From assembly GCF_013167455.1 (NCBI RefSeq), contig NZ_CP038328.1: a stretch of DNA of 64,000 nucleotides; one strand, 5' to 3'. Position numbers: made by a program. The DNA comes from Escherichia coli O157:H7 (GTDB lineage Bacteria > Pseudomonadota > Gammaproteobacteria > Enterobacterales > Enterobacteriaceae). Of this stretch, positions 1 to 3,000 are shown piece by piece. Numbering within the stretch: the stretch's first letter is position 1; each line of letters starts with the position of its first letter.

Positions 1-3000
1 TCGTCAGCCGATCAACGACCCGCGTAAAGATTAAACTCCCTATGCCCGATAACATTTTGCTTATCGGGCATTTTTATGGCGATTAAAACGTTTCCCAGTT
101 CTCCCCGCTATCTGCCACTGCCATTTTACGCGGCGTAGCTGGCGTCACGGTTTTTACCACAGCCGATGTTTCACGCTGCTGTTGCTGCTGTTGCTGAATC
201 CGGAACACTGCCACAGCTTCGGTCAGGCGACTGGCCTGCTCTTCCAACGCGGCGGCGGCAGCGGCAGACTCTTCCACCAGCGCAGCGTTCTGTTGAGTTA
301 CCCGGTCCATCTCAGCAACCGCTAAGCCAACCTGATCGATACCACGGCTCTGCTCATCAGAAGCAGAAGCTATTTCGCCCATAATGTCCGTCACGCGGGT
401 CACAGCACTGACAATCTCCGCCATTGTTTCCCCGGCGCTTTCGACCAGCGTAGAGCCAACATCCACTTTCCCCACCGAGTCTTCAATCAGGCTTTTAATT
501 TCACGAGCCGCCTGGGCGCTACGCTGGGCCAGATTACGCACTTCTCCCGCAACCACCGCAAAACCACGTCCTTGCTCACCCGCACGCGCTGCTTCAACCG
601 CCGCGTTCAAAGCCAGAATATTGGTCTGGAAGGCAATGCCGTCAATTACGCTGATAATATCGGCGATTTTCTGCGAACTGGTGGAGATATCACGCATAGT
701 CTGCACCACGTTATCTACCACTTTGCCGCCGCGTTGCGCCGTTTCAGAAGCACTTAACGCCAGGTGGCTGGCCTGGCGCGCATTCTCGGCGTTCTGTTTC
801 ACCGTTGCGGTGAGTTGCTCCATGCTGGCTGCCGTCTCTTCCAGCGAAGCGGCCTGTTGCTCGGTGCGCGAAGAGAGATCGTTATTGCCGGTAGCGATTT
901 CGCTGGCACCGCTATAGATGGCATTGGCCCCGTTGCGCACATCACCGACGGTACGCATCAGCTCTCCCTGCATATGGCGCAAACTCTCTGCCAGTTGCCC
1001 CATCTCATTAGAGCCATCCACCTCAATCGGTTTCACCAGATCGCCGCCTGCAATATGACGAATGCTGTCAATCAGGCGATTCATTGGCGCTACCAGCGAG
1101 GCTTTAATACCGAACCAGACGGCGAAGATGACCGCCAGTACGACGATCATCACGCCCACCAGAATCCACATCGCCTGGCTGTAGGAGGCATTGTTATCGC
1201 TGACGGCGATATCATAGAGCCGATCGTTTTGCTCCATGTAAGCCACATACTGCTTCTCGAAACCGTCCTGATATCCCTGGGTCGGCTGATCAAAGAACTC
1301 GTTGATTTTGCCTGCACCTAACAGTTGGATCAGCTCCGCCAGCGCATTGTGATAAATATCGTAATTACGTTTGATCTCTGCCGCTGCGGCGGTGCTCTGA
1401 CGCGGGTCACGCGGCAACGCTTCGTAATCTGCCCAGTTTTTTTCCGCCTGTTTCAACGAAATACTGGCACTCTGCATCAGCTCAGCAACGGTTGAACCGC
1501 TACCAATATTATTCTGATCCATCATGTAGCGGATACCCGCGCGGTTGAGGGTGTTACGCGTCTGCAACAACGCGACCCAGCTGCCATTCAGCGTGGATTG
1601 CTGCTGGCGAATGGTTTGTAAAACAGTGAAATTTTCTTTGTCATTCTTTAAGGCATTAAAGAACAGACCGCCTGATGTCAGTTGTAAAAGGCCAAAAACG
1701 GCCAAAACCAGCAGTAAGCTGGTCACGATCTTGATACGTTTTAACATGGTTTCTCTTTCCTGTGGACCGATGCAAAATTTTCGGCCTGAAATGAGAAAAC
1801 TTTATAGGTAGCGACTTGAAACTGGTTAATTTTACCTCACTTTTTTTAATTTTTGTTCAAAAATACAATAACCACTTATTGATACATTTTCTTTTCTTAT
1901 TTTTTTCACACGAATTGTATCTATTTTGAACGAAATATTTTATAGAGTGTGGAATTTTAAGAAAGGACATCTGAAATGTTAAACCGTGACTTCGATCATC
2001 TCTCAACGCTATTACATCTCTTTTTTGAACGTGAGGATATTTGCCAAAAGCTTAATATTATTGACCAAAACAATATCACCGGTTGGGAAGTGTGGTTCCA
2101 GGTAGAGTTTGCTAATATGCTCTGCTCAACAGACCATGAATGGTGGCGTGAACAAGCACTTTCCTGTGATATGCGCAAAAAACCTGAGCGCCCGACACTA
2201 CGCACAGATTTCTTACTACGTAAAAAAGGCTGGGCACAAGATAGCTATATCGCGCTTGAAATAAAACAAAACAGAGACGCGACCAGTTGTGTTAAAAATA
2301 TGATCGCAGACTTAGAAAAAAGCGCAAAAATAAAACGTTCCGAACTCGATTTACGCAGTTTCTGGACCTTGGGTATCACCCCTATGATAGACAGGGAAAG
2401 GCTGGACTCTCTCATCGATTGCTATTTAGATGAGAAATTTTATCTTACTAAATCTCGTAAAAAACACGTTTTACTTAAAGAAATAAATAACACACCATAT
2501 TGCTATATTGTTATTTAATATTTATAGTATGAATATAATTTTTAAATGAGTTACACAACCGAGGGCTAAAAATCGCTTCGGTTGTGATCATCATCACATA
2601 AATAACCTTCATAAACCTTGCTCAAAACCGCTCAACCGCAAAACTGACCGCTTACGTCCCTAAAATAACCACTCAGTTATTTACCTTACTTTACGCGCGC
2701 GTAACTCTGGCAGCATCATTGCAGGATAGCGGTCAATTTACCTCCTCAAACGCAACGCAAACCTAGAACGGCTTCGGCCAACTATTAATCAATACATGCC
2801 AGGTTTTACTATGGATACGAAAAAACTATTCAAGCACATACCCTGGGTGATTCTCGGAATCATCGGTGCATTCTGCCTCGCGGTAGTTGCATTACGTCGG
2901 GGGGAGCACGTCAGCGCCCTGTGGATCGTGGTCGCCTCTGTGTCGGTGTATCTGGTGGCGTATCGCTACTACAGTCTGTACATCGCCCAGAAGGTGATGA

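Follow-up and report, generated by a model that had tools for sequence, protein, structure and literature searches.

A predicted single-domain PD-(D/E)xK nuclease encoded between tsr and btsT in Escherichia coli O157:H7 and its possible role in defence

The PD-(D/E)xK superfamily includes the Type II restriction endonucleases (BglII/BamHI/BstYI/OkrAI and BglI/SwaI/EcoRV) and NucC, an effector of the cyclic-oligonucleotide-based anti-phage signalling system (CBASS); restriction-like domains are also found in mobile or selfish systems, including the N-terminal domain of Tn7 TnsA (PF08722), the R2 retrotransposon endonuclease and the nuclease domains of Wolbachia CinB. Single-gene integron cassettes are reported to protect against phages, among them the putative dimeric restriction endonuclease Brc142, which confers protection on E. 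coli, Klebsiella and Pseudomonas (preprint 10.1101/2024.07.02.601719). Here we describe a 180-residue protein that is predicted to belong to the same superfamily and is encoded in a 64,000-nt stretch of the E. coli O157:H7 genome (contig NZ_CP038328.1 of assembly GCF_013167455.1), hereafter the window, to whose positions all coordinates refer. Its gene, ECs_5314 by its Sakai name (WP_000934391.1, a "hypothetical protein" in RefSeq), is an intact open reading frame (ORF) at 1976-2518 on the plus strand, lying between tsr (83-1747, minus strand, from RefSeq and ORF calls) and btsT (2811-4961, plus strand, RefSeq start).

By its fold, ECs_5314 is very probably a PD-(D/E)xK nuclease. The AlphaFold2 model, built from a 31-sequence alignment, has a mean predicted local distance difference test (pLDDT) score of 89.4 with no segment below 50, and a predicted template modelling (pTM) score of 0.87. 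It consists of two N-terminal helices (residues 2-17 and 20-31), a helix at 38-50, three strands at 54-64, 74-83 and 90-98, a helix at 102-118 and a strand at 125-136, which together make up the superfamily core, a mixed sheet of four strands with helices on its flanks (alpha-beta-beta-beta-alpha-beta). The candidate catalytic residues are E44 (with E38), D78 and E95-x-K97, and their placement is canonical: the glutamate E44 lies in the first core helix, the acidic residue D78 in strand 2 and the (D/E)-x-K motif E95-x-K97 in strand 3. Conservation was evaluated over 103 cluster representatives with no more than 50% mutual identity, in which E44, D78 and K97 are each kept in 99% and E95 in 98%, the remainder having Asp at the last position; E38 (97%), W40 (98%), E59 (97%), D112 (100%) and K115 (91%) are conserved as well. 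In the 31 closer homologues E44, D78, E95 and K97 are invariant. The first-pass annotation of this DNA had suggested a PD-(D/E)xK core from the spacing of these residues, and both the core and the residues it named are borne out by the fold model and by the conservation.

Comparison of the model with solved structures gave the highest fold-match scores to the nuclease domains of Wolbachia CinB (8.8 and 7.8), followed by BglI (7.1), the R2 retrotransposon endonuclease (7.0), SwaI (7.0), the Cas4-like protein SSO0001 (6.8), DrdV (6.8), BglII (6.6), BstYI (6.5), NucC (6.4), OkrAI (6.4) and BamHI (5.9). As far as a model can show, these scores assign ECs_5314 to the superfamily and to no particular family within it. 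A Foldseek search of the PDB returned nothing at E<=1e-3, its weak matches being members of the same superfamily; cap-snatching RNA endonucleases occur among the weak fold matches.

Curated libraries contain no model for this protein. NCBIfam gave no match, PHROGs gave nothing below an E value of 0.1, and in Pfam the best hit of ECs_5314 was TnsA-like_N (PF08722) at a non-significant E value of 0.11; when 55 members were searched with the same Pfam model, the best E value was 5e-3, five members lay at E<=0.1 and none at E<=1e-3. Profiles made from 31 and from 55 sequences found no match among PDB sequences even at an E value of 10, and in AFDB50 the only matches were members of the family, which carry the label uncharacterized. 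A PADLOC match to an orphan methyltransferase (E value 9e-4, residues 108-173) was rejected as spurious, for it spans just 65 residues against a profile of 444 positions, and three other members lack it. In a literature search no paper was found that names the protein or its locus tags. The family is thus one with neither a curated model nor a studied member, a new and uncharacterised family inside a very familiar enzyme superfamily.

The reading frame is beyond chance, because it is under purifying selection and has about 190 clusters of homologues. Between ECs_5314 and the allele of strain EC6622, the most divergent intact allele in E. coli (97% nucleotide identity), the rates of nonsynonymous (dN) and synonymous (dS) substitution are 0.009 and 0.112, a ratio of 0.083; against the copy of E. 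marmotae/ruysiae they are 0.028 and 0.386, a ratio of 0.073; and against Citrobacter dN is 0.115 with synonymous sites saturated. A word-indexed protein search recovered 39 relatives from Citrobacter, Enterobacter, Serratia, Pseudomonas and metagenomes, and when 1.84 billion cluster representatives were searched exhaustively with HMMER, 191 homologue clusters passed E<=1e-3 and 104 passed E<=1e-10; nearly all are single-domain proteins of 170-200 residues (about 180). Among the homologues, P0123 and P0162 stand out as long, and both were discarded as tandem-repeat artefacts. The start residue of ECs_5314 is common to all full-length homologues, and a Shine-Dalgarno-like AAGGA (1962-1966, plus strand, read from the sequence) stands nine bases before its ATG. 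As judged from these substitution patterns and homologues, ECs_5314 is a real protein-coding gene maintained by purifying selection.

The tsr-btsT spacer (1748-2810) measures 1063 bp and is AT-rich, with a GC content of 27-43% in 200-bp windows where tsr and btsT have 52-60%, and the first-pass description of an AT-rich spacer of about 1.06 kb carrying an intact 180-residue ORF proved accurate. Its remark that K-12 has no gene here was also right: the K-12 spacer is 377 bp long and contains no ORF. Alignment of O157 with K-12 matches through 1805 and resumes at 2583, which delimits a polymorphic segment of 777 bp (1806-2582, no strand) in whose place K-12-type strains have about 90 unrelated bases and others the hpa operon. 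The segment is found in 362 of 5426 complete E. coli genomes (6.7%), always as a single chromosomal copy; its carriers are mostly O157:H7, joined by a few unrelated strains at 97.7-99.7% identity. ECs_5314 is accordingly not a core gene of all E. coli, and the structure predicted for its product is nuclease-like, the two points on which the first-pass proposal of a nuclease peculiar to some strains could have failed.

One part of that proposal, a recent insertion or acquisition, was not supported, and the direction of change is probably the opposite. The order tsr-ORF-btsT is also present in E. marmotae/ruysiae, in Phytobacter diazotrophicus, in another enterobacterium and in four Citrobacter (C. 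portucalensis, C. braakii and two more). Between O157 and E. marmotae/ruysiae the dS of the ORF (0.39) lies between those of its neighbours tsr (0.53) and btsT (0.11). In E. coli N50 (L012) a decaying copy persists, in which the upstream region and both ends of the ORF remain at about 90% identity and two internal deletions have occurred. Because the same slot is occupied in other genera, the divergence resembles that of the flanks and N50 keeps a remnant, the gene is probably an old resident of the Escherichia/Citrobacter lineage that was deleted from most E. coli, and not one newly inserted into O157; it may also have been transferred by recombination between conserved flanking sequences. 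The locus looks like an acquired island, being AT-rich and strain-specific, and is better explained by an ancestral gene lost from most strains; its history is a caution for the reading of "O-islands", whatever the function of the gene.

Across species the family is sparse. When 100,044 species were scanned, each represented by a single genome, about 97 proved to carry the gene; Gammaproteobacteria predominate among them, and Betaproteobacteria, Campylobacterota, Nitrospira and other groups contribute the rest. In plasmid and phage collections, tblastn searches found no homologue. For the neighbourhoods, ORFs were called in 86 loci, the family gene was identified in 83 of them, and the encoded proteins were clustered all against all. 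No neighbour recurs in these 83 loci apart from lineage-specific housekeeping genes, namely tsr/btsT in enterics, prpC/acnD in Acinetobacter and pgl/gnd in Pasteurellaceae, and the family gene hence has no partner that encodes a methyltransferase, an immunity protein or an antitoxin; it is self-contained and needs no conserved partner gene. In 73 of 76 loci it is richer in AT than the locus as a whole, the mean difference being 8.2 GC points, and truncated copies account for 9 of 80. Of 76 upstream genes, 52 point the same way as the family gene, and in 25 of these 52 the gap is shorter than 120 bp. On one metagenomic contig (L009:868-1968) 10 bp separate the start of the family gene from a preceding RNase T-type (DEDD) exonuclease gene on the same strand, an arrangement seen once that may represent a two-nuclease operon.

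In Vibrionaceae the family gene is an integron cassette. The copy of Vibrio genomosp. F10 is bracketed by two repeats of about 125 bp that belong to the Vibrio cholerae repeat (VCR) type; in V. hepatarius (L046:147-5980) the gene is preceded by a VCR-type attC repeat, one of at least eight that lie at intervals of 466-2417 bp in a chromosomal integron cassette array; and VCR-type repeats accompany the copies of V. harveyi, V. tasmaniensis and Photobacterium (they are present in L048, L031 and L044). The window itself has no similarity to VCR-type repeats and no attC site. Defence-related genes adjoin the family gene in some loci: hsdR is directly upstream in two Xenorhabdus genomes; the copy of Serratia fonticola shares an integrase island with hsdR; a full-length SIR2 gene of the defence type (PADLOC E value 2e-105) begins 97 bp downstream in a betaproteobacterium (L039:6640-7914), followed by a gene of 591 codons; and a retron-type reverse transcriptase (E value 5e-23) is encoded divergently upstream in Marinospirillum (L034:4685-5461). 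Many other sampled neighbours are ordinary, among them cspA, rtcB, queG, tamAB and a histidine kinase gene.

We tentatively propose, with somewhat less than even confidence, that ECs_5314 is a functional single-domain PD-(D/E)xK enzyme with a role in defence. The protein would cleave nucleic acid by the divalent-metal mechanism usual in the superfamily, and its activity would have to spare normal host DNA, because the gene has persisted for long without a methylase or an immunity gene. The target would probably be foreign or abnormal DNA, for example modified phage DNA as in the case of Type IV restriction enzymes; alternatively, the nuclease may be switched on only during infection. A role against foreign DNA is favoured because the family is patchy and AT-rich, includes integron cassettes, has occasional defence neighbours and recalls the single-gene cassettes of the preprint (10.1101/2024.07.02.601719). 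Its mobile and accessory character is counted in support, as expressed in the roughly 97 carriers among 100,044 species, the AT-richness, the truncated copies and the Vibrionaceae cassettes. In the window, the nearness of the immigration control region, 3.7 kb from the gene, is a further hint of defence. If the enzyme is active and spares its host, it would add a compact, partnerless member of 180 residues to the bacterial defence or DNA-processing enzymes and give a function to a gene that separates O157:H7 from laboratory E. coli; K-12 is naturally without the gene, which makes gain-of-function tests simple.

Several observations weigh against a defence role. The family gene mostly has housekeeping genes beside it (tsr/btsT, prpC/acnD, pgl/gnd, tamAB, queG and rtcB), any association with defence islands is weak in the subset of loci sampled for it, and no model of PADLOC-DB v2 fits ECs_5314. 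A long vertical stay in one slot is atypical for fast-cycling defence genes, and the protein has no extra domain for reading modified bases. Moreover, no promoter was found for ECs_5314, and the gene may be silent: its leader or presumed promoter region (1806-1975, plus strand, 27-34% GC), defined by composition and the left breakpoint and lying within the segment absent from K-12, yielded no strong sigma-70 match in a promoter scan of the plus strand. The stronger version of the proposal, a previously unrecognised family of one-gene anti-phage nucleases that is partly integron-borne among Proteobacteria, has been kept in O157:H7 and lost from K-12, and senses foreign DNA without an accessory domain or a partner, is possible and on balance doubtful.

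Some of these same observations are what would be expected of a host nuclease for DNA maintenance, acting on branched DNA, flaps, mismatches or damaged ends in the manner of Hjc, RecU or Vsr, which would help repair or recombination and be dispensable enough for frequent loss. Long vertical inheritance in one slot under strong purifying selection suits such an enzyme, as does the fact that it would require no immunity or methylase partner; the frequent position of the gene at the end of housekeeping operons (co-directional upstream gene in 52/76, 25 gaps below 120 bp), the copy 10 bp behind an RNase T-type exonuclease gene, and one RtcB and one UmuD-like protein among 20 sampled neighbours point the same way. 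We regard this explanation as unlikely. The conserved active site bears on a further reading, that of a nuclease fold without enzyme activity retained as the scaffold of a DNA-binding or regulatory protein. Some proteins with the PD-(D/E)xK fold are catalytically inactive, and the gene is placed between two regulated promoters, but representatives of no more than 50% mutual identity keep every part of the catalytic signature at 98-99%; a dead scaffold is not expected because this signature is kept across the family, and we consider such a protein highly improbable.

A toxin with a non-adjacent antidote, be it an antisense RNA, a distant gene or a silenced AT-rich promoter, or else an RNA-cutting enzyme, would fit the AT-rich and possibly silenced upstream region; the cap-snatching RNA endonucleases among the weak fold matches agree with it, as does symE, a toxin gene under antisense control that lies in this part of the chromosome. 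A promoter-like site on the opposite strand (1982-1954) appeared to fit antisense control, but it is a product of the codons ATG-TTA-AAC, Citrobacter has not retained its -10 part, and promoter-like sites number 2 in the region where shuffled sequence gives 3.5, so that this candidate, neither conserved nor above chance, was dropped. Neither a small conserved ORF nor an Rfam RNA is present (no match in 1600-3000), and no partner, small or otherwise, recurs in the 83 loci; the overlapping minus-strand ORFs of 41-69 codons had no support and were set aside. A toxin is in our judgement quite unlikely, and we would put a selfish nuclease gene, homing-endonuclease-like or addictive and spreading or persisting by cutting genomes that lack it, as very unlikely. 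Homing endonucleases of the PD-(D/E)xK type are known, at this locus a single gene is present or absent, with sharp borders, in an intergenic site between two promoters, copies stand alone between conserved genes in many genera, and decayed copies exist (N50, and the 9 truncated of 80). A homing cycle, however, predicts rapid decay after fixation, whereas here the ORF has diverged along with its flanks, at a dN/dS of about 0.07 across species; moreover, each carrier genome has a single copy, none lies on a plasmid or phage, and the empty K-12 allele has some 90 unrelated bases and no clean target site.

The borders of the strain-specific segment coincide with the control regions of the flanking genes. 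On the left, a sigma-28-type promoter-like motif for tsr, TAAAGTTT-N11-GCCGAAAA (1778-1804, minus strand, read from the sequence), lies outside ECs_5314 and is kept in K-12; by its likeness to the consensus of class-3 flagellar promoters it is a candidate FliA promoter. The segment begins two bases past this motif, i.e. the polymorphism sits exactly between the control regions of both genes. On the right, its border is a CRP-like palindrome of the btsT control region, TGTGATCATCATCACA (2583-2598, plus strand), which is followed upstream of btsT by the direct repeats ACCGCTCA and ACCGCTTA (2627-2634 and 2647-2654, plus strand); palindrome and repeats were located from sequence and alignments and are kept in all haplotypes, and the former is a putative CRP site and the latter are putative BtsR sites. 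As read from the alignments, both flanking control regions are intact in O157, which for btsT is what the first-pass annotation had stated and is confirmed by the alignment with K-12. The frame of btsT has a longer version from an ATG at 2796, five codons ahead of the annotated start at 2811 (MDTKK...), and Citrobacter homologues start at the MDTKK position.

Directly 3' of ECs_5314 lies a stem-loop, CACAACCGA-N15-TCGGTTGTG (2554-2586, plus strand), with a fold z-score of -4.2; none of 200 shuffled sequences folded as stably. Its right arm overlaps the CRP-like palindrome of btsT. Citrobacter has a stem-loop at the equivalent place with another stem sequence (z-score -4.8), which suggests that the structure is conserved between the two, and the element may serve as a 3' end or as an insulator. 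It is not a classical terminator and was not called by the terminator scan, which gave no hits, because it has no T-run. A vestigial attC site was considered for this stem-loop and dropped, the 9-bp stem being too short and the core sites imperfect.

The slot between tsr and btsT exists in at least three haplotypes in E. coli, with the 180-codon ORF, with the K-12-type filler of about 90 bp or with the hpa (4-hydroxyphenylacetate) operon, the last of which, in E. coli 2012EL-2448 (L010), lies on the tsr side of the same breakpoint at the CRP site. A repeat of about 120 bp resembling the enterobacterial repetitive intergenic consensus (ERIC) separates the promoter of btsT from the start codon in E. 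marmotae/ruysiae (L095:4330-4450) and in the hpa-carrying E. coli (L010:4190-4300), and is absent from the window and from K-12.

Beyond btsT, from 3.7 kb downstream of ECs_5314, the window contains the immigration control region (6250-16602). Its genes include an HNH-endonuclease-family gene of 452 codons (6250-7608, minus strand), hsdR (8179-10611), hsdM (10642-12147), hsdS (12147-13901), two hypothetical genes (14510-15673 and 15721-16602, minus strand) and, within the same limits, symE.

ECs_5314 can be set beside several described systems. Its identity to the Type II enzymes and to NucC is only 6-13%, and it has no sequence-level match to any solved structure. Type II restriction-modification pairs an endonuclease with a cognate methyltransferase, which is not encoded beside ECs_5314, where the neighbours are tsr and btsT, and does not recur in the 83 loci; NucC acts within CBASS, and no cyclic-nucleotide synthase is encoded next to ECs_5314. 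In TnsA, R2 and CinB the restriction-like domain belongs to a mobile or selfish system, whereas in ECs_5314 the domain is the whole protein and is accompanied by no transposase, reverse transcriptase or partner factor. Brc142, by description, is likewise small, partnerless and restriction-enzyme-like, and it is carried on an integron cassette, as the Vibrionaceae members of the present family are too, whereas the E. coli gene is outside any integron and without an attC site. A further parallel is offered by the Type IV enzymes Mrr and McrA of the immigration control region, partnerless nucleases that are tolerated as host-sparing and are encoded in the same chromosomal neighbourhood as ECs_5314.

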